Shown piece by piece: positions 2,124 through 38,645 of a stretch of DNA of 64,000 nucleotides. Position 1 is the stretch's first letter. Every line of letters begins with the position of its first letter. Under the pieces are notes generated by a model, which did no database searches, was not told the origin of the DNA, and saw only the letters and a list, made by a program, of their open reading frames with translations. Location: the IMG/VR virus record IMGVR_UViG_3300047157_000186. One strand, written 5' to 3'. Origin of the DNA: a virus. Lineage: Duplodnaviria; Caudoviricetes. The position numbers were made by a program, and so were the translations under genes.

Positions 2124-3953
2124 ATGGCAGAATTAAAATTTTTAAGTACAATTAGAACGGGAGCAGAGTCTATTAAGGCTGATGCTAGAACTTATATTTC
2201 TAGGGTATACAATAGAGCTAACACTTTGTTTACTTTAGCTTCACCGTTTGCACAAATAATAGCTGTACTATCAGAAATGATGGATCTTATTATGTATTAT
2301 ATTGAGGATTCTGTAGTAGAACAAAACATATATACTGCACAGCAACCAGAATCAATATATGGTATGTCAAGATTGACAGGTCATGATGCGACAAGAGGAT
2401 TTGCTTCTACTGGTGAAATTATATTTAGATGGAAACCTGGTGCTGATATGGCAAAAATAGCAGGAAGTTTATTAAATATTAATGGTAGATCAGAAATTAA
2501 ATTTGATGCTAACGGAATGACGTATACTTTATTAAATTCTGTTGAATTATTTAAATTAGAAAAAACAAATTATAATGCATTTAAAAGTGCAATAATTCAA
2601 GGTAAATTTGAATCACAAACTGTGACTTCTAATGGTGAAAAATTACAATCATTTAACATTAATACTGGTGGAATCACTGATCATAGTAAAGTTACTGTAA
2701 GTGTTAATGGTGAGCAATGGACAAAGCATGAATCTCTTTATGATCTATTATCTGATGAGAAAGCATATTTAATTAAAACTGGTATTAGCGGAGGTTTAGA
2801 TCTTTATTTTGGAAATGGAAGTTTTGGAATGGTGCCACCAAATGGTGCTAGTATTAAAGTGGAATATGTAAAACATTCTGGAATTGCTGGTAATTTAGAT
2901 GATTCACCTGATCTAACTATTAAGTGGGATGCAACTGGTTATGATTCTAATGGAACAGAACATGATTTAAATGAATTCTTAGATGTAACTGTTACTTCAT
3001 CTCCAAAAATGGGTAGTGATAGAGAGAATACTCAATTTACAAAAATAATGACACCACTTGCAAGTAAATCATTTGTATTAGCTACACCTGATAACTATGA
3101 ATACTTTTTGTCAAGATATAATATGTTTTCTTACATAGATGCATATAACACTACTGACGATCAATATTTAGATGATGATAATGTTATTTATATTTTTGCG
3201 GTGCCAGATGTTAATAAAAAATTAGCTAAAAATCAAGATTACTTTACTGTACCACAAGAAGAAATGTTCTTTGATCAAGGTGAGTATGATGCAATGCATA
3301 AGGTTTTAGAAGATAGCGGCCAACAAATGGTAACAACTGAAGTTGTTTTTGTTAAGCCACAGATAAGAAAATATAGTATTGATATTAATATTAGATTCTT
3401 TGAAGGTTATACTAAGGATGAAATTTACACAGCTGTAAGAGAGAGAATGTCAACATACTTATTAAATATAACAAGAAGAGATAAACTGCCTAAGTCTGAT
3501 ATTATTTATATCTTAGAAGAAGTAGCAGGTATTGACGCTGTAAATGTTAGGTTCATTTCAGAGACAGAAGAAACAGCAAGAAGACTTGGTTATTATGAAT
3601 CAATTACTACTACCGTGGTTCCACAAGAACCAGTAACACTGGAAACTGTAGGAAATGGAAAACAAAAATATGTTTTCTTTAAGAAAATAGAGGATGTAAA
3701 GGTGGTTCCAGTTGATGAAAATACTGTTATTCCTCCTAAGGTAAAAGGATTAGATCAGTGGGGTGATATTATAATGGAAAAAGAAGAAGTTGCTGTTTTT
3801 AGAGGCGGATGGTTAGATAGAGATGGTGACGTTATGGAAGATGATGTGTTAATTAACGCTGAAGCTGCGGTAAGTATAAACTTTGAAGCAGATCCTGTGC
3901 CTAGAACAATATACACTAGAGTACAAGCTGGAAATAGAAAGGCACTTAAATAA
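2124..3953 (+). CDS. gp6: Baseplate wedge protein, T4 gp6 / baseplate J-like
   Basis: 609 aa; AQQPESIYGMSRLTGH, LYFGNGSFGMVPPNGASIKVEY and VLATPDNYEYFL are gp6-like segments; follows gp25. Confidence 0.75.
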   Translation: MAELKFLSTIRTGAESIKADARTYISRVYNRANTLFTLASPFAQIIAVLSEMMDLIMYYIEDSVVEQNIYTAQQPESIYGMSRLTGHDATRGFASTGEIIFRWKPGADMAKIAGSLLNINGRSEIKFDANGMTYTLLNSVELFKLEKTNYNAFKSAIIQGKFESQTVTSNGEKLQSFNINTGGITDHSKVTVSVNGEQWTKHESLYDLLSDEKAYLIKTGISGGLDLYFGNGSFGMVPPNGASIKVEYVKHSGIAGNLDDSPDLTIKWDATGYDSNGTEHDLNEFLDVTVTSSPKMGSDRENTQFTKIMTPLASKSFVLATPDNYEYFLSRYNMFSYIDAYNTTDDQYLDDDNVIYIFAVPDVNKKLAKNQDYFTVPQEEMFFDQGEYDAMHKVLEDSGQQMVTTEVVFVKPQIRKYSIDINIRFFEGYTKDEIYTAVRERMSTYLLNITRRDKLPKSDIIYILEEVAGIDAVNVRFISETEETARRLGYYESITTTVVPQEPVTLETVGNGKQKYVFFKKIEDVKVVPVDENTVIPPKVKGLDQWGDIIMEKEEVAVFRGGWLDRDGDVMEDDVLINAEAAVSINFEADPVPRTIYTRVQAGNRKALK

Positions 3954-4237
3954 TGGGTTTATTTACAAATTTATTTAACTATAGACAACGTAGAAGATAT
4001 GATTCTGCTAAATCTAGAAAGGATGATAGATTACACACGGGATTTAACTACGATGATGAGTTGGCTCCAGGAGAATTTATTAGTAAGTCTTTGTCTGGTC
4101 ACATTCAAAGAAATCAAACTATGCAACATTTTTTAATATTCTTAGATGACGCATTAAAGAATTTATTAAAGGGTGCAAGATATTTAAATAATTTTAAAAA
4201 TTACACCGTTGACGAAAACACAAAGAAAACTAAATAA
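3953..4237 (+). CDS. Small baseplate-associated hypothetical protein
   Basis: 94-aa ORF coupled on both sides by TAATG stop/start overlaps. Confidence 0.55.
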   Translation: MGLFTNLFNYRQRRRYDSAKSRKDDRLHTGFNYDDELAPGEFISKSLSGHIQRNQTMQHFLIFLDDALKNLLKGARYLNNFKNYTVDENTKKTK

Positions 4238-6981
4238 TGTACGATAATTTAAGATTTTTTAAAGGATTAGAATATGATTTAAACTTCGTAAAGGATAACT
4301 CTGATGTTTATCAGGGAACTGTGCATTTATCTGAGGTTTCTGCTGGTTTATATGAAACTATTAATTTATTTATATTAGAAGAGTGTGAATTATTCGGAGA
4401 CCCTATTATAAATTTCCCAGTATCTGAAACACCAGATAACGATAAATTTATATTTGAATGGAGTGAAGATACTAGATTTGGTAGTAAAGATATTACACTA
4501 TATAATATAGATCATTCTGGAAATCTTCCAGTAATTAAAGAATTAAAATCTCAAACTATTGATCTAATAGATTTTAGTAAAGTTGCGGTATTTAATGATG
4601 GTACTAAGGCGTTGTGGGAACAAGATAGTACCGCTATTCAAATTAATATAGCGTTAAATTCATTAAAAGCTGGACCACATGTTAGAAACTTGCACATTTA
4701 TCATAGCGCAGCGGGTGTAAAAACACTTATAGCAGATATTGAAGTTTATGGTGAAGTAGTTGCTGAAGATGAAAGAACCAAAATTCTTCTTCAAAACTTT
4801 GGAGCTACATTAGATGAATCTGATTTTATGTTATTTAAAGATCATGACATTAGTGAAATGTCACCTGATTATAAATTACTGAATAAGAAAAGAAAGGAAT
4901 TACTTTTAGAATTACACAACATAAAACCATTTGTTGGTACATATAAAGCAATATTGAATGCAATAGATTTCTTTGGTTATGACAAAATAACACTTAAGGA
5001 ATATTGGTTAAATGTTAATAATTCTGTTAAGAACTTTGGTAAATTATTTGCAGTTCCAGTTCCTAACTCTTCTGTTAGGGGTGAAAACACTAGAAAGAAA
5101 TTAGCGTTTAAACTGCCTTCTAGTACAATGAAAAAAACTAGTAAGTTTAGTCTTGTATATAGATTAAACGAGCCGAATGGAACATTTGATCATTGGGATA
5201 TTCCTAATGTTGATGAGGTTTTTGATTATACACCAGAAGAAGTACTTATTAAACTATATGGTTTAAAGGCAAAGTTACAAAAAGATTATTTACCGCTTCA
5301 AGCAAAAATTATAGATATTACTGCCGAAGGAGATTACTTCTCTCAAAGAAATATAAATGTATGGAATATTCAAAATGGCATTGATTTCTTTAGTGAAGGA
5401 CATGATATTAAGTTTAATGTATTTCCTAACGATAGACAGTTATTTATAGAAGATATGTCAATGGTTTTAAAACCATCGCTTAATCAAGATGATGATTCTA
5501 ATAACTATAATTTATTCTTAAATACTAAAAGCGGACAAGAACATACATTAACCCCAAATAATAGAACAGAATTAAAGAGTATATTTAGAGAGTTTTATGA
5601 AACATATCATAATCAAGAATTATATTCTTATAACCCTAACATTCCAATTGGATGTCCTGTATTATTAGACGGTACAGAATCATTTGATGATATTTGGGAT
5701 GAAGCTAAATTTACTTGGGAAGATGCTCACAATCCAAACGATACTTTGTTAATTACATGGAACGATTGGTGGAAAGCATGGGTTTATGAAATAGAATGGA
5801 TTATTACAAGTAAAAATAAAGGGTATGATCAGACTTATAGGGGTGCGATAGATGATTATTTGATTCTTCCATTGATATTACCACATGATGACATATATAC
5901 TGTCGAGATGAGAACATATGATCTCTTTGGGCACAGATCTCATTATAGAATGAAAGATCTAATAGATGTAAAACTTAAAAATCTAGAATTATACGGTATT
6001 TATAAGTGGTTAGAAGATGATTCATGGGATAATAAAAATCTACCGTGGCAAAAATCAGGTGGTTATTGGAATCAACCTCAAGATAATGTAACAACTATCG
6101 ATGATGATATTGCTACTCTTTATTTAACATTAGATAGAGCAAATTACATTCACTTTGAAGAAGATCAAGGAGTTAGATTTTCAACTGTTAGTAGGTATTT
6201 AGATATTTATTCTGAAACTGCATATAGTGAAACTACTGGACCATATACATGGGACGAATCAACGTTTGATTGGAAAGACACTGAGCATTTAGCGTGGCAT
6301 TTCATGAGAGTTGGACCTGATTTAACTTCAAGTTTCAAAATAAATGATATACAACAAGGTGATACCTTAGTAATAACACATAAAGATCCAAAAACTGGAG
6401 AAATAAGCACAGGATCTCATCAAATAGTTAATGCTACACCAACCACGTTTAATGATGTAAATGGTTGGACTCAAATAATGAATGAATTACAACAAAGTGA
6501 AGACTATGTTATTAGTAAATTTAATTATAACGCAATATTTGAAGATTCTGACGATAATGATGTAAGTGATGTTTTTAAATTCATATTGGTTGTAGGAAAA
6601 GAATACTCAAAAACTTATGATTTTGAAGACGCTTCGATAATAAAAATTAATAATTCATCAAACGCTAATATTAGCGGTGAAATTCACGTACAACATTACA
6701 ATCCAACATGGGACGACACCAGAGTATTTAATGATTATGCAGAGGTTGAAAGATCTACACATGTTACATTTTCAACAGATATTTCTAGATTCCCTGGAAG
6801 TAAAAATGCTAAATGGACTATCACAAATATAACTAACCCAAAAATCACTGATATATACTATAATAATATGTGGCTTACATATATCTTTAAAGAACCTGGG
6901 TACTACAATATTCAGCTAGAAACTGAAGATACAAATGGAAATAAAAACCTTGTAAATAGGAACATGTTAAAAGTAAAATAA
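4237..6981 (+). CDS. Large structural (probable baseplate) protein with C-terminal PKD/Ig-like segment
   Basis: 914 aa; KPFVGTYKAILNAIDFFGY resembles baseplate wedge/gp7-type segments; C-terminal YIFKEPGYYNIQLETEDTNGN is PKD-like; structural context. Confidence 0.55.
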   Translation: MYDNLRFFKGLEYDLNFVKDNSDVYQGTVHLSEVSAGLYETINLFILEECELFGDPIINFPVSETPDNDKFIFEWSEDTRFGSKDITLYNIDHSGNLPVIKELKSQTIDLIDFSKVAVFNDGTKALWEQDSTAIQINIALNSLKAGPHVRNLHIYHSAAGVKTLIADIEVYGEVVAEDERTKILLQNFGATLDESDFMLFKDHDISEMSPDYKLLNKKRKELLLELHNIKPFVGTYKAILNAIDFFGYDKITLKEYWLNVNNSVKNFGKLFAVPVPNSSVRGENTRKKLAFKLPSSTMKKTSKFSLVYRLNEPNGTFDHWDIPNVDEVFDYTPEEVLIKLYGLKAKLQKDYLPLQAKIIDITAEGDYFSQRNINVWNIQNGIDFFSEGHDIKFNVFPNDRQLFIEDMSMVLKPSLNQDDDSNNYNLFLNTKSGQEHTLTPNNRTELKSIFREFYETYHNQELYSYNPNIPIGCPVLLDGTESFDDIWDEAKFTWEDAHNPNDTLLITWNDWWKAWVYEIEWIITSKNKGYDQTYRGAIDDYLILPLILPHDDIYTVEMRTYDLFGHRSHYRMKDLIDVKLKNLELYGIYKWLEDDSWDNKNLPWQKSGGYWNQPQDNVTTIDDDIATLYLTLDRANYIHFEEDQGVRFSTVSRYLDIYSETAYSETTGPYTWDESTFDWKDTEHLAWHFMRVGPDLTSSFKINDIQQGDTLVITHKDPKTGEISTGSHQIVNATPTTFNDVNGWTQIMNELQQSEDYVISKFNYNAIFEDSDDNDVSDVFKFILVVGKEYSKTYDFEDASIIKINNSSNANISGEIHVQHYNPTWDDTRVFNDYAEVERSTHVTFSTDISRFPGSKNAKWTITNITNPKITDIYYNNMWLTYIFKEPGYYNIQLETEDTNGNKNLVNRNMLKVK

Positions 6982-7580: not shown

Positions 7581-9518
7581 ATGGCAACTCCTCTAGTTAG
7601 AATACCGCAGCCAATGGGCGGCACAATGTATGCTTTCGCATCTTCTGCGAGAGACATGACTAGGGCTTTTAATAGTTCAGATTTAAATTTTGAGTTTAGT
7701 AAATACGCTTTATTAGATCTTCCAGATTTTACTGATTCTGTTAATGGCTCTAACACAATAGATTTTGAATTAAATCTTAAACAACCTTCAGGTGATGCAT
7801 ATGTTGCTGGAATGCCTAATGTGGATTTTGCACAAACATTCCAAAATTATGCGCTTAACTTAGAAGAGCTGTTATTAAAAGACGATGATTATGATCCAAT
7901 AATATTACAATCAGATTCTGAAAAGATATTTTTTAAATGGTTAAGTTCTTTGGGTGCAGTAGATTTTATTGCAGCTGATTCTAACCAGACACTTGTTGGT
8001 AATTATACCGAAAAAGTTAATGGTACGTTTGCTAGTGATAACTACGATAGAGTTGTTAAATATTTAGGAACAATAGATGCTGAAAACGATGTTGCATATC
8101 AAGGTAACACGTATCATGAAGTCTATATTAATGTACCTACTTCAGTAGGTTATACTCCGACTGTTTTATTTAAACCAACAAATTATAATACGACTGCAAC
8201 AAAATTATATGCAAGTGATTATGTAGAGGGCAGAGAGGCACAATTACACCCTGATCCAAACATAAACATGAATACTGTTGTTGATGAATATACGTCAAGT
8301 AGTGGAGCTTATTATAATATTCAAACTAATGCTACTAACAGTGTTGGAATTAATTTCGATGCAACTGCATATGAAGAAATTAATAATGACGTTGAAGTAG
8401 AATCACTATTAGATTTTGCTAAAAAGGGACAAAGGTTTACATTTAATGCCATTCTTGTATACTATGATATTTATAGCGAATCTATTTCTGCGAATAGAGC
8501 AACTAACTTATATGGAATATTAATTTTAGATGATATACAAGATGCTTATGGACCTGGTTCTAAAATTAACGAACAAATTAAATTTAAACCAAACGAGGTT
8601 ACAGGTTTAAATGGTAATGCATTTTCTTTAAAATTAAATCTTAAATTTAATTCTTCATTAGATAATGTTGGTGTAGAAACAAGTGTAAATGATTTTACAA
8701 CTTTCTCTATGGATTTATTCATGGACACAACAACTGCTCTTGAAAATGCAACTGAATTGTTAATACAAGCTAATAATAGATATGCTGCTATTGTAGAAAG
8801 ATTAGATTCTATAGAAAATATTGTTTCTTCTACTGAAGACACAACTGCTTTATCACAAAAGGTTCAAGTATTAGAAGATGATTTTCAAAGTAGTTCTCTT
8901 CAATTAGCGGATTCAAATTCTCTTTTAGAATTAATAACAAAGGCACATACTAAAATTAATTCTTTAATTGATGGAACTATTCCAGTAGAATTACAATACA
9001 ATACAGATATTATATTTGCTGGAAAGGGTACAGAAGTTGATAAAACTATTCCTAATAAAATTAAAATTGACAGTACAGTTGACGGTTATACATTAAATAG
9101 CCCATACTTGTGGAATATAGCAGCAAGAACAATCGCTACTAAATTATCTACAACAGAGCAATTTGATGCAGGTGTAGCAGGGAATGGATCTTCTAAGTTT
9201 GCAATTTGGTCTAGACTTGAAGAATTTTCAAACAGATTAAGTTTAAAAGGATTATTCTCATCTGAGCCTGAAAGTGACCTTAATATATACATTGACGATA
9301 GTTTAGTTTCGTGGAAAAACGGACAAACTTTCAAAATTACATTTGATGAAATAAATATGTCAGGAAATAATATTAAATTTTGGACAAACTCAGTTGGAGG
9401 TTTTGATCAATTAATATTTAATGTTGACTCAACTCAATTAATAACAAATAAACCATATATTGAATTAGTGTGTATTGATTACACTAACTATCAATTTGAA
9501 GCCGATATTTTAAGATAA
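7581..9518 (+). CDS. Hypothetical virion structural protein
   Basis: 645-aa uninterrupted ORF with a coiled-coil segment, inside the structural operon. Confidence 0.5.
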   Translation: MATPLVRIPQPMGGTMYAFASSARDMTRAFNSSDLNFEFSKYALLDLPDFTDSVNGSNTIDFELNLKQPSGDAYVAGMPNVDFAQTFQNYALNLEELLLKDDDYDPIILQSDSEKIFFKWLSSLGAVDFIAADSNQTLVGNYTEKVNGTFASDNYDRVVKYLGTIDAENDVAYQGNTYHEVYINVPTSVGYTPTVLFKPTNYNTTATKLYASDYVEGREAQLHPDPNINMNTVVDEYTSSSGAYYNIQTNATNSVGINFDATAYEEINNDVEVESLLDFAKKGQRFTFNAILVYYDIYSESISANRATNLYGILILDDIQDAYGPGSKINEQIKFKPNEVTGLNGNAFSLKLNLKFNSSLDNVGVETSVNDFTTFSMDLFMDTTTALENATELLIQANNRYAAIVERLDSIENIVSSTEDTTALSQKVQVLEDDFQSSSLQLADSNSLLELITKAHTKINSLIDGTIPVELQYNTDIIFAGKGTEVDKTIPNKIKIDSTVDGYTLNSPYLWNIAARTIATKLSTTEQFDAGVAGNGSSKFAIWSRLEEFSNRLSLKGLFSSEPESDLNIYIDDSLVSWKNGQTFKITFDEINMSGNNIKFWTNSVGGFDQLIFNVDSTQLITNKPYIELVCIDYTNYQFEADILR

Positions 9519-13316: not shown

Positions 13317-16300
13317 ATGTCACAAATTACATTAAGAAATTCTAATACGGGAGCAGATCCAGCCAATGGAGCTAATAGTTTATGTTTTAGTGGCCTAGAT
13401 GGTATATTAGATTTATATTACACTGGTACATTAACTGCAAATGGTGGAAGTTCAGCCACAGGAACAATATTAAATACCGATAGTGCTAACCCCACTCCAT
13501 GGGATGGACAGAATAAATTGTACATTGATGAGTTAGGTTGTAATATATTAAGAATATCCAGTGCCGGTGAAGTAATGGAGTTATTTTCAAATGACACGGG
13601 TACAGGTGTGCCAGTGTGTACTCCTGTAATTACTGTAACAGGTCCTAATCTTATTGATGATCACTTAGAAGGTACAGTATATACTGACCAAGGTGCTACT
13701 TTAGAGGAAGAGTGCCCATCTGGTGGTAGTATAACGGTAACAGGTGTACCCGATGGCATGACAGTTGGAAATTATACTATAACATATACATATCCTAACG
13801 CAGTAGATAAAATTAGAACTGTAAATGTGGTTCCAGCTCCGACACCAGTTCCACCAACAGCAACGCCTGTGCCAACACCCGTGCCAGATACAACGCCTCC
13901 GGTAATATCGCTTACTGGAAATGCTATAATAACTATCGAGGTAGATCCATCTTTTACAGGTCCATATATTGAAGATGGTGCTACGGCATTGGATGATGTA
14001 GATAATGACATTTCATCGCTCATAGTAATTGGAAATTTAAATAATGTAGATCCAACTAACGTTGGCGTTTACACGATTACATATAATGTTAGTGATACCG
14101 CAGGAAATCCCGCAGTTGAAGTTACTAGAGAAATTCAAGTTGTAGATACTACAATACCTGTAATTGTACTTCAAGGGGATAATCCTTTAAACATTAATAT
14201 TGGTGCTGCATATAGTGAACCTGGTTTCGCCGCAACTGATAATTATGACGACAATGCAACTCTTACTGGTGCTGTAGTTGTAGGAGGTGATACTGTGGAT
14301 AACTCAACAGTTGGTCAATATAATATAACATATAATGTAACTGATTCAAGTAATAATAATGCAGTAGAGGTAATTCGCGTTGTTAATGTAAACGACACTT
14401 CAGCTCCAATTCCAGAAAACGAGACATATGATGTGGCTTGGAATGCAACGCTCGCTATTATATTAGAAGCTTCAGATAACGTAGATTCTTCTGGTAGTTT
14501 AACATATACTATAGTAGATCAGCCAACTAAGGGACAATTAAATGCAGATGGAGGTGATCTCTTTACATATACTCACACTGCAACAGTATACGGACAAGAT
14601 TCTTTTACTTTTACAGCGACTGATTCAGAAGGGAACGTTTCTCTTCCTGGCACAATAACAATAAATCCAATAAACAGTGCACCTGTTTTAACAGATCCTG
14701 GATCAATACAATTACAACAAAATTCAAGCGTTGTATTTAATGTTGGTATACAGGATGCTGATGGCGACGCAATAACAATTATTGAAGATACTGCTGTTTC
14801 AAATGGTACAATTCAACTTATACAAACGTCTAGCAACTTAGAGGTAACATATACACCTAATCTTGGTCATTTTGGTGGAGACACATGGGTCATCATAGGT
14901 GAGGATAGTAAATCAGAGCAATCAATTCCACTAACTATTAACTTTGCTATTGAGGCCGTTCCGTATTTTGAAATGGATGCTTCATCATTTGGTAGTGATC
15001 CAGATGCCATGTGTATTGCACCTAAAACTACAAATGTTTACGGTGGAACAACATACGCAAATAATGTTAGTGAATTATCAATAGGTGATACGGTTTATTA
15101 TGATCAAAATTTAACTAATAAAGTTACAAGACCTAGTAATACTGCAATATACATAAAGGTTTCTGATTCTAGTAAAACCAGAGTATTAGGTATTAATGCC
15201 AATGGAGCAATTACAAGTATTAAAGAATGTGAAAGTAATGCTAATTCTGTATTTACACCAGTTAGATATGCAAGTAGTGAAAACGCATTCTGTGATAATG
15301 ATGTACAAATCACAAATCTTTGGTATAATGATGATGGAAGTGGTTCAAAAACTTTACTTGAATTAGTAAACGGTTTTGTAAATGTATTTTCTAACGAATA
15401 TGACTCAGATTTATTTACTGTTACTAATACAGTACAGAGTTCTATAGAAAGCGGAGTTTATGGAGATGTAGATATTACTTTGAATAAATTTTATAAAAGA
15501 TCATCTATTAATACATGGGGAGAAAACAATGAGGCAAACTCAGGTGGGTTTGATTTTGAGTGTGAGGAAGAAGTGCCACAGGAAACGTTTCCAATAACTG
15601 TTCAGTATTTACCAAACTTTGAGGATCCAAATTTAAATGAATTTTGTGCGGGTCAAATTGATAATGAACTCACAAATGTTACTCTATGGTTTAGTAGAGA
15701 TTTAGGTGCGTCAGCAATTAGTAACTTGTTAGAATTAGCACAGTCAAATATTGCCATATACAAATCTCAATTAGGTGCACAATCACAAGATCCTTTAGAT
15801 TTATTTGAATCTAACATATTTGCACAAGGTGGTGACGGACATTTAGCGTGGGATAATCTTGGTGATGGTAAAAATTTAAATTGGTATGGATATGATATTA
15901 ATAATAGGCTAGTTGTTGGAACTGATATTGTAAGTTGGGGCTCGTGTTCAACATATAATGATAGACCTGAGATTAATGGTCTAAATGATATAACAAGTGG
16001 TAATAATGATGTAAATATGTTTTACGCATTCTACTCTTATATGCCTGAAATAGAAGGACCCGAAGGTAGTGATCAAAATGATTCAGAAGATATATTTTGG
16101 CCAATATATGTAATAGATGGTCTACATACGATTAGTTCAGGAGACACTGGTAGTTATATAAAAGATTTTATAGATAATTTAACGATAGGAAATGTAGTTA
16201 CATCTAATAACACTGGAGAATGTTTGGCATATGTTTCTAATATTGTAGCCGAAGACATAGATGATGCTGTATTATTACTAAAAAATAATTTATTAGATTC

Positions 16301-28953: not shown

Positions 28954-29016
28954 GAAACGAAAGAACATTAAAGTAATTTCAAGGTATTAACAAAACAAAC
29001 TAAACAATTTAAAGGT

Positions 29017-29939
29017 ATGAGTGATTCATTTGACATTTTTAACTTGGGCGTGGAAGACGTAGAAACGCACCAAGTGAAAGCAAGTAGTTCTACTAACGAA
29101 GATCTACAAACCAACAGCAGACGATGGTAAAGACGGAACTTACAAAGCATTAATACGTTTTGTGCCAAATCCAGAAAACCCTCGTAATTCCCTAATCCAA
29201 AAATATGTACACTGGTTAACAAACTCTAGTGGCGATGGTAAATTAGTTGATTCTCCAGCAACAATCGGAGAAAAATGCCCTATCGCAGATGTATTCTGGA
29301 AGTTGCGTAAATCAGATTCAGCTGTAGATAGAAAATCTTCAGATAAACTAAAAAGACGCCAACAGTACTATTCTTTAGTAAAGATCGTAAAAGATCCACA
29401 AAATCCAGAACTAGAAGGTACTTACAAAGTATTTAAATTTGGATATAAAATTAAAGAAAAGATAGACGCAGAATTAAAACCAAACTTTGGTGAGCCAACA
29501 CAAGTATTCGACCTATTCGAAGGTAAGAACTTTGAGTTAGTTATCACTAGACAAGGTGAATATAATAACTACGATAATCTAAATTTTCTTCTAGTAAGTC
29601 AGCTATTATTATGGGCGATGCTCCAGCAGAAAGTAGTAAAGAAACTATGACTACTATCAAAGAAGAGTTAGAAGCAGCTCCTTCATTAAAAGGATATGAT
29701 TATCAAAGCATGGGACGAAGATACAAGATCATTTGTAAATGATGTATTAAGAATGTATCTTAATCCGGGTGATTCTATTGCATCGAGTGACATCAAGTGC
29801 TCCAAAGGCAGCAACTAAAACTGCAACAGCAGTAAAAGAAAAACCAGCGGCAGCACCAGTGACTTCAACGTCGGAATCAACTTCAAGTGTATCAACAGAT
29901 GATGATCTAGATTCTTTCTTGAATGACCTCGACATCTAA
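29017..29939 (+). CDS. gp32: Single-stranded DNA-binding protein, T4 gp32-like (apparent frameshifts)
   Basis: YKPTADDGKDGTYKALIRFVPNP, CPI and VFKFGYKIKEKI, with an acidic C-terminal tail DDDLDSFLNDLDI; pieces lie in different frames with breaks near 29100 and 29580-29710. Confidence 0.8.
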
Positions 29940-31005
29940 TAACAATATAGAACTTACTGAAGAGCTTAAAGGATAAAATAAGATATGCACTTAACAAGTA
30001 GTATCTCAAATACATTCTACTCCTAATAAGAAGCTACTAAAGGACATGCATGGGCGAATAACCTGTGCATGTCCTTATTGTGGTGATTCTCACTGAAGAC
30101 GATACCAAGAAAAGAGGTAATATATTTTGGGATACACTACAGTATCATTGTTATAATTGTAGTTATCATACTAATCTATATTCTTTTTTAAAAGATCATG
30201 ATGTTAAGATGCCTAACATCTAATGACTCTTTTATGGTTATCGACTATATCAAACAAAATAAAATACAGGTAAACCCAGAGTCTGTATTGAAACACCAGG
30301 CGCTAGAAAAGATACATAATCTAGCAATTGATGTTGAAGAATTCAAGAAACATTTTAAAGCTAAAGTAATAGAACCAGGTGATTGGATTTGGTTTCAATT
30401 AAAGATAGGTTATTACATAAAAAATCTGAAGAATTTCTATATTCAGATAAAGAGTTTCGTTTTGGATTCTTAAATATAGTACAGATGGTAAAATTATAGG
30501 TGCACAACCAGTAGAATGAAAGGGTATGGGACAGAGATATTTAACTTATGATTTGCCAAAATTATATGAAGAAATGGGTAAGCCATTAGAAATGAGCAAT
30601 GAGGAACTAAACACACTTGCAAAGATATCAACACTTTTTGGAATTATGCAATTAAATTTCCAAAGACCAGTAACAATGTTCGAAGGTCCTTTAGATGCTA
30701 AAGTTTATGCATAACTCGTTGGCCTTAGCAACTGCAGGTAGATCAACTGATGAATTTGATGAGATACCAACTGTAGGTATATGTTTGATAATGACGCAAC
30801 GGGTAAAAAGAAAATGGCAGAAAAGTTAAAGAAAGGCAGACCCGTTTTTATGTGGTCTAAATTTCTTAGCGAAAATAAACTAGATACATATAATATTAAG
30901 GATCTAAATGATTTAATATTGAAGTGTTTTGAGCTTAAAATCGATGCTCACAAAAAGATCGATAATTATTTCACTTCTAATCAATTAGATTTATGGTATG
31001 TATAG
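29923..31005 (+). CDS. gp61: DNA primase, T4 gp61-like (multiple apparent frameshifts)
   Basis: Zn-finger CACPYCGDS...KKRGN, TOPRIM-like MFEGPLDA, MFDNDATG and KDLND in successive frames. Confidence 0.75.
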
Positions 31006-31214
31006 AAACGATTAACAACATGGTTGAGGATAACTTTGATGAGTTCCAAAAAGACAGTGATAGATTTAAGGGTATGAAACTTTTGATAGATTTCAAGCCA
31101 TTAGATCTTAGCGTCAATTCTCCAGAAATGGAAATGCCAAAACCTAAATTTAAGAAGAGGCAAATAACATCAAAATTTATTAAACCAAATCCTAACAAGA
31201 AATCATTATTTTAA
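30993..31214 (+). CDS. Hypothetical protein
   Basis: 73-aa ORF between primase and UvsY; no recognisable motif. Confidence 0.4.
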   Translation: MVCIETINNMVEDNFDEFQKDSDRFKGMKLLIDFKPLDLSVNSPEMEMPKPKFKKRQITSKFIKPNPNKKSLF

Positions 31215-31215
31215 T

Positions 31216-31638
31216 ATGACTAAAGAAAACATACTAGCATTAGACGGAAAAGTTAAGTAGACAAAGAACTGAGTGGACAAACAATATAAAAAAGTTGGCA
31301 CAGAGTTTGAGAAACTTAAATTTAATGGAAGAAACAATTGCTGAAGTTTTATCTTCGCGTCAATCTCTAGTAGAACAAATGCATATTTAAATATGAAAGT
31401 AAAAGAACAAAAAGCAAAAGTAGCTATTAGATATAGAGAAGCCTATATTAGATACTATGAATATGATTATAAACTCGGTGAAAAACAAAAAGAAAGATTT
31501 ATAGAGACAGACTTAGCAGACGAAAACATGATATTGTCTCATCTAGAAAATCAAGTTGAGTTTTTTAAAGATTCGGTAAAAACCCTAGATAATATGGGAT
31601 TTGCCATTCGTAATAGACTAGCATTAAAAGATCTATAA
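31216..31638 (+). CDS. uvsY: Recombination mediator UvsY-like (frameshifted 5' part)
   Basis: C-terminal VEFFKDSVKTLDNMGFAIRNRL resembles UvsY (..L..I..RGF.IKNAI); directly upstream of UvsW as in T4-like phages. Confidence 0.55.
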
Positions 31639-31663: not shown

Positions 31664-33172
31664 GTGGAGCTTAGTTTAACTGAAAATAAACAGTTGCTAC
31701 GTATTGATGAAGCAACTGAATTAGAACTGGAACAACTCAATATTTCTTTAAATAGAAGAATTGATTCATGGCGATTTAATCCTTTGGTTAAAAAGGGTTT
31801 ATGGGATGGATATGTTTCATATATAAAAGATGATAAATGGATTCCTTCAGGATTATGGAGAGAAGTCATGCAGATATGTAAAGAATATAAATTTGAGTTT
31901 AAACTCAATGGTATTACTGACATGTTTGATACCAATATTAATCAAGAAAAATTTACAAAATGGGCTTTAGACTTTTTCGAAAAGTCAGAGATAACTCCAA
32001 GAGATTATCAAATAGAGGCAGCATTTAATATACTAAAATTTAGAAGATGCTTAAGTGAGCTTGCAACTTCTGCGGGTAAAACACTGATATCATTCTTAAC
32101 AGTATCATATTTACTAGAACAACAAAAAGCAAAAAAGATTTTATTTATTGTACCCAATGTATCATTAGTTGTACAAGCGAGTGAAGATTTTCTAGACTAT
32201 AATTATAGAAATGCAATAGATATTAAGGTACAGCAAATATACAGTGGTCAAAAATTAAGGCCAGGTAGGAATGTTATTATTGGAACATATCAATCACTTG
32301 TTAAAAAAGATAAAGCATATTTTGCAGAATTTGATGCAGTAATTGTTGATGAAACACACAAAGCAAAATCAGCCTCTATTAAAACTATTTTACAAAAGTG
32401 TATTAATGCAGATTATAAATATGGTTTATCTGGAACTATTCCAAAAGAAGGCACATTAGATAGATTAACACTAATGGCATATACTGGTCCATTAATTACA
32501 GAAATAAGTGCACATTATTTACAAAACGAAGGGCATATAGCAGGTTGTAAAGTAAAGGTAATTAAAATGGACTATGCACCTCAATCTACAAAAGACGCAT
32601 TTAGAGAAATGTCCCAGAATAGATATGAAAGTAAAGACGTTTTTAAATTTGAGCAAAACTATGTGATCAATTCACCTGGAAGACTTAATTTTATAACAAG
32701 TATTATCTCCAGGGTTAAGGGTAATAGTTTAGTTCTTTTTCATAGAATTGAACATGGTAAAAAAATATATGAAAAACTCAGACAAGAGAGTGATAAATCT
32801 GTTTATTATGTTGATGGTGGAATTGATAAAGATATTAGGGAAGAACACAAAAAGAAAATGGAAGCTGGAAACCAAGTCGTCATTGTCGCTTCATATGGTA
32901 CATTCTCAACTGGTATATCCATCAAGAAAATCCACAACATATTCTTCACAGAATCATTTAAATCGGAAGTAATTATTAGACAATCTATCGGTAGAGGTTT
33001 AAGGCAACATAGCTCTAAAGACTCGGTCAATATTATAGATTTTGTAGATGATTTAAGTTCTCCTGATTGGGACAACTATCTAATAAGACACTCCAAAGAA
33101 AGACAAAGGATCTACAAGGAACAGAAGTTTAAGTATGATATAAAAAATGTAGATTTTGAAGGAGATATATAA
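31664..33172 (+). CDS. uvsW: SF2 DNA helicase UvsW
   Basis: PRDYQ Q-motif, ATSAGKT Walker A, IVDETH, GLSGT, QSIGRGLR. Confidence 0.92.
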   Translation: MELSLTENKQLLRIDEATELELEQLNISLNRRIDSWRFNPLVKKGLWDGYVSYIKDDKWIPSGLWREVMQICKEYKFEFKLNGITDMFDTNINQEKFTKWALDFFEKSEITPRDYQIEAAFNILKFRRCLSELATSAGKTLISFLTVSYLLEQQKAKKILFIVPNVSLVVQASEDFLDYNYRNAIDIKVQQIYSGQKLRPGRNVIIGTYQSLVKKDKAYFAEFDAVIVDETHKAKSASIKTILQKCINADYKYGLSGTIPKEGTLDRLTLMAYTGPLITEISAHYLQNEGHIAGCKVKVIKMDYAPQSTKDAFREMSQNRYESKDVFKFEQNYVINSPGRLNFITSIISRVKGNSLVLFHRIEHGKKIYEKLRQESDKSVYYVDGGIDKDIREEHKKKMEAGNQVVIVASYGTFSTGISIKKIHNIFFTESFKSEVIIRQSIGRGLRQHSSKDSVNIIDFVDDLSSPDWDNYLIRHSKERQRIYKEQKFKYDIKNVDFEGDI

Positions 33173-33174
33173 TA
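33164..33174 (+). promoter_or_regulatory. Late-type promoter motif GATATATAATA
   Basis: Overlaps the uvsW stop codon, upstream of the internal-protein array. Confidence 0.5.
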
Positions 33175-33205
33175 AAATAATAACATACAAAAAAATAACA
33201 ACACT

Positions 33206-35503
33206 ATGTATAAATTAAAATCTTTTGATCAGTTTTCTACTGAATCACAAATCAATAGATCTAGACAAGTAGAAGAAGAAAACTCTACTAAAAGAAGTAC
33301 TGAAGCAGAAACATATAAAAATTTACTTGGTGAATTTAAAGTTACTTCTATCAAAGAATTAACTGAAGAGCAAAGAATCGAATTTTTTACTAAGTTAAGA
33401 GGCGCTGAGATTAACGAAGCAACTGTTTTAATTGAAGAAGGAACTAGAGGACAAATTGGTAAAATCGATAAAAAAGGAAATATCACTTCTGTATATATGC
33501 ATTATGATTCATATCCTGAAAACATATTACCTATTATAACTTCAACTTTTAAAGATGGTAAAAATGTAGATTTTATTCTTAAGAATGGAGACAGTTCGGG
33601 TTTAGATAAAGATGTTAAGAAGATTAATTTCTACGGGAACTTTACAGCGTCTAAGGGTAAAATTGCTAATATATCTAAATATCTAAGGGATGTTGCTGAT
33701 GGCGGCGGCGCTGAATTCGTATACTTATGGGATGAAGCCAACAAAGAATGGTTAATGGCAGACATTTACGGTAAAGGATATGATGATGTTTACCCAGCGT
33801 TTGAATCTTTAACTACTTCAGTAAATGAAGCTATTTCAGTTCAATATAAAAGAGACGCAAAAAAAGTTTTAACAGTTTATAAAAATTTATTTACTAAGAA
33901 ACTAACAGATTTTGGTGCAATGGACAAAGTAGGTACATTAGGTTGTATTAAGTATCTTTTTGAAGAAGCGATGACAGATGCTAATTTCCACAGAGAGAAA
34001 GTTATATCTAAGAATATTAAAGGTAGAATAGGTTCATTTGAATTAAAAGTAGCAGGTTTAGGTAATCACTTTTTAACAATAGGTGCTACTACTACAAAAA
34101 GAATTTTAGATAAACATTATAGTGACCTTGCAAATGCAGCTGGTTGGTCAGGAATCGGAATTGTTGAAGGTACTGCTCTTTATTTAGAGAGTATTAAAGA
34201 AGAAGCTTCAGGTCAAGCTTTATTAAATGCGTTTAACATGTTTGAGTCATTTGCGTATGACGAAGGAGATGCTATCAATGAGAAATCATATGATAAAAAG
34301 TCTTTAATGAAAGCTATGAAAGCAGATGATGGCATGATTCAATTAGGAAATGGACAAGAGTATGTTATTTATGCATATGGTAATGGCAACGATAACAATG
34401 ATGATATGTGGGGAGATAAAACAATCTTTGGATTAGATCAAGACGGAGAAGAACATGAGATTAAATATTCTGACATTGTAAGTTATAATGAAGCTACTGT
34501 AGTAATGGATGCAATGGATCCTAAATCAAAGATACTTAAAAAACTTTTAAAGAAACATAACGTTAAAATGAAAGTTTTAGATCCTAGTGGACCAAGTGGT
34601 TGGCCAGAGGTTGAAATGACAGGTTCAAGAGAAGATCTGCAAGCAGTTTTAGCATCTGAAGATGGTTGGGACGACGCTGGTCTAGAAGAATATATTGAAG
34701 AATCAGTAGTTACTGAATCACACCCAAAATGTTCAAATAAAAAAGGACATGCATACAAAGAAATTGACAAAGACGGAACTGTAGAATGTGAATATTGTGG
34801 TTTAAGAAATTCATTAAGCGAATCAGGGGTTACTGAAGCTAAATTTGTTAAAGAGTTTGACGAGGCTGTTTTAAAAGCAACTACACAAGAAGAGGTTCTT
34901 GAAATTTATCCAAACGCAGAATTCTTTATTGGCAAATCAGATCATTTCTTTGGAGAGTTTGATGAAAATTTATTCTTTAAAGCATATTATACCAAAGGAC
35001 AAAAAGAATTTGAAATCAAGTCAATTTATTCTGAAAAAAACAGTAACTATGTTCACTTATATAATGAATCAGTAGTTACTGAAGCTAAAGGCTTTAAAAA
35101 CACAACAGATTTCGAAAAATTCTTAATAGAAATTGATGGAATGGGAGAAGCTCAAATTAAAAAGATAATGGGTAAAGATTATATCGATACTCCTGGTTAT
35201 TATCAAGATGAAAAAGATGATTATGATGATGTGGAAGATTTTATGAGATCTAATATGGGCACTTCAGAATTTGAAAAACTTGAATCATGGTGGGAAAGCA
35301 ACGTTGCAGAATCAGTAGTTACTGAAGCTGAAGTTAATTCAGATGAAGAATTTGAAGAATATGCGGTAACTGTTTTACAAAAAGCATTTGGAGAAGATTT
35401 TGACGAAGCTAAATCTAAAAAAGTTATAGACGGTATTTTATCTAAAGCAGATGGAGATTATGGTACTGCAGTTGGTATGCTAACTAGCTCGTTAGGACAA
35501 TAA
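33206..35503 (+). CDS. Putative internal-head polyprotein: capsid-targeting-like leader plus modules separated by x-x-E / ESVVTE sites
   Basis: MYKLKSFDQFSTE leader; repeated EINE, SVNE, AINE, SYNE and four ES(V/G)VTE junctions. Confidence 0.6.
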   Translation: MYKLKSFDQFSTESQINRSRQVEEENSTKRSTEAETYKNLLGEFKVTSIKELTEEQRIEFFTKLRGAEINEATVLIEEGTRGQIGKIDKKGNITSVYMHYDSYPENILPIITSTFKDGKNVDFILKNGDSSGLDKDVKKINFYGNFTASKGKIANISKYLRDVADGGGAEFVYLWDEANKEWLMADIYGKGYDDVYPAFESLTTSVNEAISVQYKRDAKKVLTVYKNLFTKKLTDFGAMDKVGTLGCIKYLFEEAMTDANFHREKVISKNIKGRIGSFELKVAGLGNHFLTIGATTTKRILDKHYSDLANAAGWSGIGIVEGTALYLESIKEEASGQALLNAFNMFESFAYDEGDAINEKSYDKKSLMKAMKADDGMIQLGNGQEYVIYAYGNGNDNNDDMWGDKTIFGLDQDGEEHEIKYSDIVSYNEATVVMDAMDPKSKILKKLLKKHNVKMKVLDPSGPSGWPEVEMTGSREDLQAVLASEDGWDDAGLEEYIEESVVTESHPKCSNKKGHAYKEIDKDGTVECEYCGLRNSLSESGVTEAKFVKEFDEAVLKATTQEEVLEIYPNAEFFIGKSDHFFGEFDENLFFKAYYTKGQKEFEIKSIYSEKNSNYVHLYNESVVTEAKGFKNTTDFEKFLIEIDGMGEAQIKKIMGKDYIDTPGYYQDEKDDYDDVEDFMRSNMGTSEFEKLESWWESNVAESVVTEAEVNSDEEFEEYAVTVLQKAFGEDFDEAKSKKVIDGILSKADGDYGTAVGMLTSSLGQ
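34700..35326 (+). repeat. Dispersed 18-bp repeat GAATCAGTAGTTACTGAA (ESVVTE linker)
   Basis: Identical copies at 34700-34717, 35066-35083 and 35309-35326; variant GAATCAGGGGTTACTGAA at 34820-34837; flanking modules are unrelated. Confidence 0.9.
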
Positions 35504-35523: not shown

Positions 35524-36798
35524 ATGAAGATCTTTACTAATTTCAATGAATTTATAACTGAGAGTGTACGTACTAGTACAACTGAGTCCCTTATTTTAGA
35601 AGGTGGAGCAGCGGGCCATATGTCACATCCATTTGATGAAAAAGATTTAACATTCGGTGACTTTAAAAAAATTGTTGAAGCTGGTCTTCAAGGAGAATTA
35701 AACTTTGAAGAGGTTGCAACAGAAAAAACAGACGGCCAAAATTTATTTGCCACCGTAAGAAACGGAGTTACTCTATTTTCTAGAAATAAAGGCCAATTAA
35801 TTAGCCCAGTCGATTTAGCCGGTATTATAAAAATGTTTGAACAGCATGAAGTTCCCTTAGTAAGAGAAACATACGTGTTTGCTGCTAAAGACCTAAATGA
35901 AGCTCTTCCAAAGATGAAGGATCAGTCTATATTTAATGAAGGTAAGAACTTTATTAATATGGAATTAATTTACTCTAAGAATCCTAATGTTATTTATTAT
36001 GAAAGAGATGTTTTACAATTCCATGATATTAAGGAAACTGATGGAAATGGAAATATTATTGGAGAGCAAAAAATAGCAGGAGAGCTGGTTTCCGCATTAA
36101 AAGAAGTTGATGCTGATGTTCAAAAAACATTTACAATAATTCCCCCTCAAATATTAAAATTAGGAAAAGATATTGATTTCGAAAAAAATCAATCTAAATT
36201 CATCAAAAAGATTGAAGCACTAAGAGATCGTTATGGTTTATTAGATACTGATTCAGTTTCAAGATATCACGAAATGTGGTGGAGAGAAACTATAGATAGA
36301 AACTTTCCAGATACAGAACAAGATTATAAAGAAGGTTTATTATTAAGATGGGCTTATGGTGATAAGAAGACTTTAAACATGAGATCTTTAGACAAATCGT
36401 TAGGTAAAGATAAAGCATCTCTTATTAAGAAATTTGACAAAGAAGATGTTAAAAAGAAATATAAAGAAAACATTAGACCGTTTGAAGATTTATTCTTAGA
36501 ACTAGGATCTATAATTCTTAAAAATGCTTCTAATTTTGTAGCAGCAAATCCAGACAAGGAAATGCAAAGATTACATAATCAAATAAGAACAGAAGCTGAA
36601 GCTATTAAAAAAACCGGAGGTGAAGCTCAAATTGCAAGAGTAGAAGCTGAACTTGCCAGATTAGATAGAATTGGAGGAATAGAATCTATTATACCAACTG
36701 AAGGAATAGTTTTTGTGTACAAAGGAAAAACAATGAAATTAACAGGTACGTTTGCAGCCATTAATCAATTAATGGGTATCATAAAATACGGAAGATAA
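35524..36798 (+). CDS. RNA-ligase-fold (covalent nucleotidyltransferase) protein, DUF6267-like, with capsid-targeting-like leader
   Basis: Leader MKIFTNFNEFITE; EGGAAGHMSHPFD; motif I TEKTDGQN, III NMELI, IV TEGIVF, V MKLTG. Confidence 0.6.
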   Translation: MKIFTNFNEFITESVRTSTTESLILEGGAAGHMSHPFDEKDLTFGDFKKIVEAGLQGELNFEEVATEKTDGQNLFATVRNGVTLFSRNKGQLISPVDLAGIIKMFEQHEVPLVRETYVFAAKDLNEALPKMKDQSIFNEGKNFINMELIYSKNPNVIYYERDVLQFHDIKETDGNGNIIGEQKIAGELVSALKEVDADVQKTFTIIPPQILKLGKDIDFEKNQSKFIKKIEALRDRYGLLDTDSVSRYHEMWWRETIDRNFPDTEQDYKEGLLLRWAYGDKKTLNMRSLDKSLGKDKASLIKKFDKEDVKKKYKENIRPFEDLFLELGSIILKNASNFVAANPDKEMQRLHNQIRTEAEAIKKTGGEAQIARVEAELARLDRIGGIESIIPTEGIVFVYKGKTMKLTGTFAAINQLMGIIKYGR

Positions 36799-38645
36799 TG
36801 GCATTACAAAATTTAAGAACATATTTTCAATCAACTAACATTAATGACTTTAATTCAATGTTGAAATTAACATGTGTTGTATCGGAAAAAATACAAGCAT
36901 CTTCGTTTCATGTTAAAAGTACTAGTACCGGTTATGAATATTTTAAAAGCGGTTCTAAACATAAAATGGATAAAGTAGATAGAACTATGGTAAGATACTA
37001 TGAAAATGGTATTAATTACTTTAAGGCTATTCCTAAAGATGTAAAAGAAGATATGCCACATGATTGGAAATTCGGATTTGACTACATGATAGACAACAAA
37101 ACAGTAGATATCGAATACGAAAGTCTTCCTAAAAACCATCTAATACTAACACACATACAAATATTAAATCCTAAAAACCCTACACAAATTAAAAAAGTTA
37201 TTAGAGATCCACAGATCTTAAATAAGTGGGCAGAATTATTAGGGGTACAAAAACCACCTGTTATATTTCAAGGAGTTTTACAATCAAATCAAAAAGATGA
37301 CTTAATTAGATTACTAGAACTTTCTGATTCTGATTTTAAAATCAAATTCAAAGATCAATCTTTTACAAGAGCCATATTTAATATATTCAACATAGGTCTT
37401 AATAATCCAACTTTAAATTCTAATTTAGATAATGACATAGACGGTTTAATAGTAAACTTCTATGAAGGTAAAAATCCAAAAAGTTTTAAACTTGAAAGAT
37501 TTGACAGAAAGGATATTCAAAAAAGAGAGCCATCTGACATGTATCAGATCGCTATATTAGATTTAGTAGAGTATATTACAGAGTTTAATCTTGAAGAAAT
37601 TTCTTTAGAATCAGAAGATTCAGCAGAAAGATATATTGAATTAATTTCACACATCTTCAATGCATACATTGAAAAGAATGCTTCTAAATATGTAGGAGCT
37701 AGCTTTAATTCTGCAGATTTTTCAGAAAACAAAGGTTTTAAATTAAACCCAGCCTTTATCACAAATGAAAAAACACTATCATTAATACAAAATAAAGTTT
37801 TATCAGAATTGTATAAAATAGCTTTAGGTAGTTTTAGAAAAAAGAGAAACAAAGAAACAGATATTATTAATAAAGATTTAATGTCACAGATCAATGAAAT
37901 AGTTGATAGTATAGATGCAATAGTAATGGCAAAAACAAATGAAAATGATGTTCTTAATTTTAAATCATATTTGTTAAATCAAAAATTACAATATAATGAA
38001 TCTCCTGTTTTAGAAGCGTTAAAGGTAGATTATCCAGAACACGGTAAGAAATTAGTAAATATGTTTGTTGGTAGATTCCAGCCCTTTACATTGGGTCATG
38101 CTAAAGTAGTTGAAACTATTCATAAGCAAAATGGCCACCCGGTTGTAATCTTATTAGTAAAAGCCAAGAACAAGAAAAAAGAAGATGCATTTAAGAGACC
38201 TTATGATGAGGAAACTCAAGTTGAAATGATCAATAGATTAAAATCTAAATATCCAATTGAAGAAGTTTTCGTAATTCCAACAGGTGGTATTGACACTATG
38301 TTTAATGCAATGAGGCCAAAATATGAACCAGTATTATGGGGAACCGGAAGCGATAGAATGAAAACTTATGGATTTCAAGTAGATAAACCAGAATATAGAG
38401 AAGATCTTGGTGTTAGAACTGATTTTGGACTTTATGAAATACCAAGAACTGGTAAGAATATATCAGCAACACAAGTAAGAAACGCAATGTTAGATGGCGA
38501 TGAGAAGCTATTTAAGAAGCTAACGCCTAAGCCAGTACATGATATGTATAATGAATTAAAATCTAAACTGGAAGATTCTATGGGGGTTTTAGAAGAGGCT
38601 GAAATAGCAACATTAACATTCGATCAATTTATCAAGAATATATAA
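36798..38645 (+). CDS. Degenerate ligase-fold domain fused to HIGH-type (cytidylyl/NMN adenylyl-transferase-like) nucleotidyltransferase
   Basis: N-terminal VSEKIQAS, DIDGLIV, SFKLE; C-terminal FVGRFQPFTLGH, WGTGSDR, ISATQVR; translationally coupled to the upstream gene. Confidence 0.65.
   Translation: MALQNLRTYFQSTNINDFNSMLKLTCVVSEKIQASSFHVKSTSTGYEYFKSGSKHKMDKVDRTMVRYYENGINYFKAIPKDVKEDMPHDWKFGFDYMIDNKTVDIEYESLPKNHLILTHIQILNPKNPTQIKKVIRDPQILNKWAELLGVQKPPVIFQGVLQSNQKDDLIRLLELSDSDFKIKFKDQSFTRAIFNIFNIGLNNPTLNSNLDNDIDGLIVNFYEGKNPKSFKLERFDRKDIQKREPSDMYQIAILDLVEYITEFNLEEISLESEDSAERYIELISHIFNAYIEKNASKYVGASFNSADFSENKGFKLNPAFITNEKTLSLIQNKVLSELYKIALGSFRKKRNKETDIINKDLMSQINEIVDSIDAIVMAKTNENDVLNFKSYLLNQKLQYNESPVLEALKVDYPEHGKKLVNMFVGRFQPFTLGHAKVVETIHKQNGHPVVILLVKAKNKKKEDAFKRPYDEETQVEMINRLKSKYPIEEVFVIPTGGIDTMFNAMRPKYEPVLWGTGSDRMKTYGFQVDKPEYREDLGVRTDFGLYEIPRTGKNISATQVRNAMLDGDEKLFKKLTPKPVHDMYNELKSKLEDSMGVLEEAEIATLTFDQFIKNI

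Follow-up and report, generated by a model that had tools for sequence, protein, structure and literature searches.

The closest known system to the gene described here is the set of internal proteins of T-even phages (IPI, IPII, IPIII and Alt), which carry a leader of the form MK..(Y/F)..F(I/L/V)xE and are cut after Glu by an S77 protease (PMC8442874, PMC5694885), in T4 only once, beside the capsid-targeting signal (CTS) MKTYQEFIAE (PMC8442874). Apart from the leader their cargo is unrelated, and the repertoire, which changes fast and is strain-specific, counters host restriction (PMC3012670, PMC12373910). The conserved flanks of T-even internal-protein genes have been implicated in the shuffling of modules (Repoila 1994, cited in PMC2839356). 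T4-like prohead proteases cleave after Glu, and in phiKZ-like phages (SPN3US with gp53 and gp54, 201phi2-1, phiKZ) many ejection or inner-body proteins lie within the head. The gp21-like protease of those phages also cuts after Glu, at a motif of three residues, and favours Val at P4 and Ser at P1'; for the SPN3US enzyme the preferred motif is A-x-E, and certain substrates are cleaved at more than one site (PMC10052503, PMC5694885). Here we describe a polyprotein open reading frame (ORF) at positions 33206-35503 (plus strand) of a 64,000-nucleotide (nt) stretch of Caudoviricetes DNA, IMG/VR record IMGVR_UViG_3300047157_000186, the whole of which is referred to below as the window. Its 765 amino acids (aa) comprise a leader that resembles those of the T-even internal proteins and about nine modules, of which those in the C-terminal half are separated by a linker conserved at the nucleotide level, and at this linker modules are gained, lost and replaced between related genomes.

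The linker is a direct repeat within the coding sequence. The 18-mer GAATCAGTAGTTACTGAA occurs exactly at 34700, 35066 and 35309, and a copy with two mismatches, GAATCAGGGGTTACTGAA, lies at 34820, all on the plus strand and all as the original prediction for this ORF had listed them; 0.13 matches would be expected by chance, and four or more copies were seen in none of 100 shuffles. All four copies are in frame within the one ORF and translate to ESVVTE three times and to ESGVTE once, and in the last three the identity of the repeat reaches 21 nt (…GAAGCT). Simple arithmetic from the codon usage of the gene family gives a probability of about 1e-3 that three independent ESVVTE-coding copies would agree in every letter. 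The full hexapeptide E-S-V-V-T-E is the junction form of the C-terminal half, and junctions throughout the ORF end in [V/I/L]-[T/N]-Glu. From left to right, linker 1 (34700-34717, exact) is followed by module C (34718-34819), linker 2 (34820-34837, the mismatched copy), module D (34838-35065), linker 3 (35066-35083, exact), module F (35084-35308), linker 4 (35309-35326, exact) and the C-terminal module A, which together with the stop codon occupies 35327-35503. The segments delimited in this way measure 34, 76, 75 and 58 aa, the lengths that had been predicted. The protein is acidic, with an isoelectric point (pI) of 4.7.

Comparison with close relatives places breakpoints exactly at these linkers. 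The 65-kb sister contig G001 (locus L017) is 99.2% identical to the ORF over nt 1-1885 and 98.5% identical over nt 2104-2298, and because the two alignments overlap on the subject by 25 bp, the overlap being the repeat itself, the difference resolves into a clean indel of exactly 243 bp that comprises module F and one linker. The form lacking module F was assembled from two different samples (L016 and L017) and the form bearing it is found in L008-L015 and in one run contig; both alleles are real, and the presence of module F thus varies between genomes that are 99% identical. In L055, which is ~84-94% identical to the window, the unrelated module E replaces module F exactly from the end of linker 3 (35085) to the start of linker 4 (35309), and identity drops at each breakpoint, from 93.6% to 87.4% and then to 83.8%. 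The homology of a further contig, L054, begins at 34486, i.e., at the junction SYNE followed by Ala, upstream of which a different leader and domain are found. The original prediction called for a comparison of orthologues at the linker; gain, loss, replacement and reordering of modules were all found there, and an invariant module order was not seen. We regard the shuffling of modules at the nucleotide-conserved linker as shown, with high confidence. The accompanying term "integron-like" did not fare as well and is best kept as an analogy only, since the junctions look homology-driven: the indel junction is a plain overlap of an 18-25 bp in-frame coding repeat, although no search for an integrase was made. 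The 25 bp of shared repeat fits homology-driven recombination or slippage rather than site-specific cassette capture.

The modules behave as independent units across a large family of proteins. A search of 5.8 billion proteins returned over 1,200 homologues, 420-902 aa in length, and the best 120 of these were split at the junction motif and the pieces clustered, giving 46 module clusters in 67 architectures. Within these 120, the order of the first three N-terminal segments is constant and everything downstream is variable; ten module pairs occur in both orders, and on its left side module A, the commonest, borders on 20 kinds of neighbour. With the C-terminal 261 aa as query, an exhaustive HMMER search matched 575 clusters (50%-identity representatives, 73-1111 aa), in which single modules sit at any position of the protein. 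Some modules are encoded alone behind a leader, as in the stand-alone genes P0239 (MRHIKLYEEFFSELNE followed by Ala and module A) and P0247 (MKNFLTFESFINE followed by Ala and module F), and in P0217 and P0219 a leader precedes two modules joined by a linker. Copies of module D that stand alone or are otherwise placed occur in P0229, P0173 and P0169, module C belongs to a cluster of 18 proteins, and in P0007 a leader (MKNLETLESFINE followed by Ala) lies mid-way within a fused ORF. The leaders of stand-alone genes (…F..F[ILV]NE) take the place of the linker before the module start, the last three residues of the linker match those of the leader, and hydrophobic-x-Glu directly precedes module D in 51 of 54, module F in 55 of 59 and module A in 133 of 143 distinct upstream contexts. 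Leader and linker are therefore interchangeable directly before the same first module residue.

The N-terminal half is organized in a similar manner with shorter junctions. The leader, MYKLKSFDQFSTE and then Ser (33206-33244), resembles the T4 capsid-targeting sequence MKTYQEFIAE. It is followed by a segment at aa 14-71 (33245-33418) that ends in EINE (aa 68-71) before Ala and belongs to module cluster 3, which is conserved and N-terminal in the homologues, and by a module at aa 72-208 (33419-33829) that ends in SVNE (205-208) before Ala, belongs to cluster 2 and resembles phrog_1987 (E 1.9e-10), whose members are small phage proteins without assigned function. The next two modules are delimited by the architectures of homologues: aa 209-359 (33830-34282) begins with AISVQYKRDAKK… and ends in AINE (356-359) before Lys, and aa 360-429 (34283-34492) ends in SYNE (426-429) before Ala. 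Module M (aa 430-498, 34493-34699), related to module E of L055, is similar to phrog_5922 (E 9e-5) and directly precedes linker 1. The EINE, SVNE, AINE and SYNE boundaries had all been proposed earlier and agree with the homologues, whereas a fifth, LIEE, falls inside a conserved domain and finds no support as a boundary. The upstream modules also move: the aa 209-359 module is preceded by a full linker, ESIINE followed by Ala, in P0085 and P0101, and is followed by ESTVTE, Ala and module A in P0230; an unrelated module takes the place of aa 360-429 in P0011 and P0016, and module M is missing from P0006 / L055.

AlphaFold2 models built on clean per-region alignments agree with this division. 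Module D is modelled as a compact alpha+beta domain with high confidence (predicted local distance difference test, pLDDT, 89-96), a helical fold is modelled for F and A (82-92), in A with three helices, and module C forms small beta hairpins with less confidence (52-69). Stretches with pLDDT below 50 coincide with the linkers between folded modules (aa 537-541 at linker 2 and aa 703-705 at linker 4), and values are low at residues 497-509 around linker 1. The reading of the segments as separate modules is borne out by units that fold independently in the models and occur alone or in other proteins. Their designation as effectors found no support, as Pfam, PHROGs, PDB sequence and fold searches and the ESM Atlas returned no recognizable function for any module. 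Module C carries a zinc-ribbon-like CxxxxxxH…CxxC pattern and matches zf-CHCC of Pfam weakly (E 0.004, below the cut-off); Foldseek comparison of both models, including module D, with the PDB gave nothing at E <= 0.001, and the ESM Atlas gave merely unnamed viral clusters or no usable match.

The DNA of the linker is conserved beyond what its peptide requires. Across 45 distinct linkers from 30 non-identical loci, with the codon usage of the same genes as background, Ser is encoded by TCA in 40 of 45 cases (background 37%), the first Val by GTA in 38 of 40 (35%), the second Val by GTT in 29 of 31 (60%) and Thr by ACT in all 25 (55%). Between orthologues of 43-74% protein identity, the same codon is kept at 52 of 61 linker positions (85%) compared to 274 of 497 (55%) identical Ser, Val and Thr residues elsewhere. 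The synonymous identity had been read as a sign of duplication or recombination, and this reading holds in that codon bias does not account for the identity, which is kept across diverged genomes. Three ~235-kb genomes of the wider lineage carry the 18-mer seven times each, always on one strand, and controls carry none. G001 encodes a second polyprotein (C1, ~3950-6774) with the leader MSNFNDFL… and other modules; its linkers (ESVVTE, ESIVAE, ESVVTE and ESVVNE) use the same nucleotides as those of the studied ORF, with the 18-mer itself among them, and its modules recur beside modules of the studied ORF in P0130, P0179, P0189 and P0195. Our favoured explanation is that recombination homogenizes the linker DNA and that mobility is limited to cassettes with a consensus linker.

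The leader and a protease of relatives suggest that this chain is processed in the head. At least eight ORFs of the window, the polyprotein included, have at their start a leader that follows the pattern MK..K.F..F[ILV][NT]E, and the polyprotein leader has, as judged by eye, the form of a T4 CTS (~10-20 aa, ending in hydrophobic-x-Glu). The sequence E-S-V-V-T-E followed by Ala or Ser fits the pattern expected of an after-Glu prohead protease. Such a protease is encoded by contig G003, which carries an orthologue of the polyprotein with ESVVTE linkers (L044) and a Peptidase_S77 match above the cut-off (E 1.3e-13). Contigs L053 and L061, the latter with a protease 100% identical to that of G003, show the G003-type head module, which comprises, in order, a T4 portal (Pfam E 3e-70), a 113-aa ORF between portal and protease that starts with MKKVRLYEDFIAE followed by DA, the Peptidase_S77 protease fused to a long acidic tail (L061:8001-10163), the major capsid protein (L061:10378-11763) and a Lys-rich 515-aa ORF that starts with MDKFEKWLEVINE followed by Glu. 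The start of the major capsid protein, MANLINE followed by Ser, suggests a very short propeptide with the same end motif. In L061 the protease domain spans 8001-8606, the tail behind it (~550 aa) is extremely acidic and repeat-rich, and the gene is possibly a protease-scaffold fusion. The three ~235-kb genomes mentioned above were located through a protease copy 83% identical to that of G003. S77 was not found in G001, G002, G004, G005 and G006, nor gp23 in G001-G005, all of which are fragments. The proposal of the original prediction, in which the prohead protease would cut at the linker and a single leader would load the whole chain into the head, is plausible on indirect grounds: the shared last three residues of leader and linker, their interchangeability in front of a given module, the S77 protease of the lineage and a late-type promoter motif ahead of the gene.

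In the model that we propose, an uncultured T4-like giant phage of marine waters expresses this ORF late, as a beads-on-a-string precursor. The leader would take the entire chain into the prohead core, where a T4-type (S77) prohead protease would cleave the leader and every linker behind the final Glu, as T4 gp21 does after the CTS, releasing small acidic proteins inside the head that are probably delivered along with the DNA. The identical linker of 18-25 bp would serve as a homology patch at which homologous recombination or slippage causes in-frame loss, gain, replacement and reordering of modules, and each phage strain would therefore come to hold its own module set, drawn from a pool common to other polyproteins and to stand-alone leader-bearing genes. 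We consider this model, in which a leader-targeted, head-internal polyprotein is cut after the linker Glu and its cassettes are shuffled by homologous recombination at the linker, moderately probable as a whole; the repeats, the modular build, the position of breakpoints at linkers and the conservation of synonymous sites are shown by the data, and head targeting, cleavage, delivery and the roles of the modules are the parts of it that we infer. Several observations weigh against it. The protease is seen in relatives whose polyprotein orthologue is ~42% identical, the modules are acidic (pI 4.1-5.2) whereas T4 internal proteins are basic, and the gene lies among replication genes, with a UvsW-type helicase upstream, rather than in the head module. 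Homogenization of linkers within genes is weakly significant (mean difference of 1.81 within genes versus 2.19 between genomes; permutation p = 0.013, with genomes that are not independent) and no more than suggestive, given the close relationship of some of these genomes. A chimeric assembly could conceivably account for L054, though the shared junction is just ~10 nt. Contigs of four marine runs contained neither module joints nor indels; as contigs, in which rare variants are invisible, they are not evidence against polymorphism.

The same repeat could also join the domains of a protein that is never cut, with ESVVTE as a flexible or structural linker and a recombination junction and the product, packaged or not, acting as a single polyvalent-type chain. 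Phages and plasmids are known to deliver variable multidomain proteins as a single chain (Iyer et al. 2017, PMC5512222), and the position of the gene outside the head module is in its favour. A plain spacer, however, could do without a conserved hexapeptide and without an invariant Glu. The leader ends in the same three residues as the linker, stand-alone genes have a leader in place of the linker ahead of an identical module start, and the motif fits T4-type specificity for cleavage after Glu; we regard an uncleaved product as unlikely. Cleavage would likewise be expected of a sacrificial prohead-core or scaffold-like protein, targeted and cut like T4 gp22, gp67 and gp68, with pieces that are expelled or inert. 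Most T4 core proteins are degraded and exit the head (PMC8442874, PMC5694885), and the acidity found throughout the polyprotein is that of scaffold proteins and of the G003 protease tail. The fast turnover, strain-specific sets and stand-alone copies, by contrast, recall cargo engaged in an arms race, as the T-even internal proteins are (PMC3012670, PMC12373910), and are unlike a conserved assembly factor, and folded domains of 8-9 kDa would hardly exit through pores of the shell, so that a scaffold role seems quite improbable to us.

The conservation of the linker DNA might instead reflect a separate nucleic-acid signal, i.e., a nuclease or recombinase site, an RNA hairpin or selected off-frame stops. 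A perfect 6+6 palindrome, TCAGTA-GT-TACTGA, lies within the 18-mer; it is completed by synonymous choices and could form a small hairpin (-3.8 kcal/mol). The other two sense frames of the 18-mer are each closed by a stop codon (TAG and TGA), and the common variants ESVVTE, ESVVNE and ESVINE all retain stops in both of these frames when inspected by eye. Yet the frequent ESVVNE and ESVINE variants lose palindrome and hairpin while still keeping TCA, GTA and GTT, the z-scores of the hairpin are only about -1 to -2.3, no recombinase or nuclease could be linked to the site, and the indel junction is a simple repeat overlap. An RNA hairpin as the cause of nucleotide conservation was rejected on its weak energy and its loss in the N-variants, and a nucleic-acid signal of any of these kinds is, in our judgement, very improbable. 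Chance, codon bias or an assembly artefact might be suspected in metagenome assemblies of an AT-rich genome with strong codon bias; against this stand the chance expectation and the codon-usage probability for three identical copies given above, the occurrence of the same ORF on many independent contigs and runs, and the presence of both module F alleles in several samples, which together leave such an origin barely credible. Exchange of modules at a linker that doubles as a predicted protease site is the explanation we prefer.

The polyprotein gene is common in the sea. The identical protein is encoded on at least 23 metagenome contigs, and the gene stretch is present in runs from at least 13 studies of marine or seawater samples. 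With 31% GC the window is rich in AT, and its source is a T4-like phage; directly upstream of the polyprotein ORF is a gene for a UvsW-type helicase, and gp32, called on near-identical contigs, lies nearby. The polyprotein ORF has no match among INPHARED phage records by blastn or tblastn. Because the best match of the neighbouring UvsW in phage records is an uncultured 462-kb phage with 56% identity, these records hold no cultured relative. The window is 99.6% identical to the metagenome contig L008 across 22 kb, and ~22 of the 23 gap positions, mostly single bases, are concentrated in 2.4 kb (28987-31381), where they fragment gp32 (306 aa in L008) and the following 360-aa gene; this patch reflects either poor-quality assembly or real decay. 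The studied ORF is free of indels relative to L008.

A candidate late promoter precedes the polyprotein gene. The T4 late promoter is TATAAATA, and a similar motif, GATATATAATAA (33164-33175, plus strand), lies 42 nt 5' of the polyprotein start codon. The pattern [GA]ATATATA occurs 13 times on the plus strand of the window and not once on the minus strand, and 10 of the 13 copies lie 12-65 nt 5' of gene starts, including those of the large ORFs at 13317 and 21394 and of the polyprotein. The longer form GATATATAATA(A/C) is found on the plus strand at 13269, 21329, 27579, 28720, 33164, 38637, 41747, 42880, 45379 and 52776, upstream of large ORFs and leader-bearing genes, and GATATATAATAA may be the late promoter of this phage. 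Downstream, the next gene (35524-36798, plus strand) encodes a 424-aa protein with the leader MKIFTNFNEFITE followed by Ser and an EKTDG sequence that resembles motif I of nucleotidyl transferases (ligases); it had no match in Pfam, PHROGs or the PDB, and neither it nor the polyprotein matched a PDB sequence at E <= 0.1. If its leader is a capsid-targeting signal, the 424-aa product would be a packaged enzyme. The 615-aa product of the gene at 36798-38645 (plus strand) has a cytidylyltransferase-like (NMNAT-type) domain at its C-terminus; this gene is probably co-transcribed with the polyprotein, because it has no late-promoter motif of its own.

If the proposed model is true, the T4 internal-protein paradigm of a leader-addressed, protease-released and injected arsenal would extend to a polyprotein format, in which one six-residue element is both a protein-processing site and a DNA recombination handle. 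Rapid diversification of virion cargo in giant phages would thereby be explained, and a simple rule, a leader or linker ending in [VIL][TN]E, would predict packaged proteins of uncultured marine phages. Hundreds of small, fold-novel domains would become candidates for injected anti-defence or host-takeover factors. A broader proposal, which we put forward tentatively and hold to be possible rather than probable, is that a lineage of abundant marine giant phages loads its capsids from a combinatorial cassette library, with the linker as a protease site and as the place where injected anti-host proteins are traded during co-infection. Dozens of small proteins would then be encoded in frame in a handful of polyproteins and in stand-alone genes, with one leader to address them and one linker for their release by the prohead protease, and the DNA of the linker would stay identical because of its second role as recombination site. 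As a natural design, the linker could allow several proteins to be loaded into T4-type capsids from one gene.

The comparison with other described systems delimits what is particular to this locus. In phiKZ-like phages, multiple cuts trim the long N-terminal propeptide of one mature protein, and neither interchangeable beads-on-a-string modules nor a nucleotide-conserved linker has been described; Pfam, PHROGs and phage-record searches revealed no sequence similarity between the polyprotein ORF and their ejection proteins. Polyvalent proteins (Iyer, Burroughs, Anand, de Souza and Aravind 2017) similarly combine several unrelated domains per chain in variable architectures, are predicted to be delivered with DNA and have been proposed to be processed into units (PMC5512222). 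The ORF, with about nine modules in variable architectures, falls within their range of 2-15 unrelated domains, and Pfam, PHROGs and PDB sequence or fold searches found in it none of the conflict or enzymatic domains and no embedded peptidase (MPTase) of the polyvalent type. Its modules are 34-150 aa long, and their release would depend on the prohead protease, acting in trans on a repeated linker.

Multi-core precursors of ribosomally synthesized and post-translationally modified peptides (RiPPs) offer a further likeness, as an analogy only, in that variable cassettes lie between conserved recognition flanks in one precursor. In cyanobactin PatE-type precursors and plant orbitide or linusorb precursors, the conserved flanks permit combinatorial variation. 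The repeats of linusorb precursors are mentioned in PMC13365257. Such cassettes, however, are 6-10 residues long and are matured by dedicated enzymes, whereas the cassettes here are folded domains in a phage structural context. In the literature searched, we found no in-frame fused cargo modules separated by internal copies of the cleavage motif of their leader, and no nucleotide-level linker conservation or linker-mapped cassette exchange of that kind. Compared with the T-even internal proteins, the modules are acidic instead of basic, and cleavage and packaging are predicted from sequence. Many modules share one reading frame here, separated by internal putative cleavage motifs, and the homology patch at which they recombine lies inside the coding sequence and not in an intergenic promoter or leader region.

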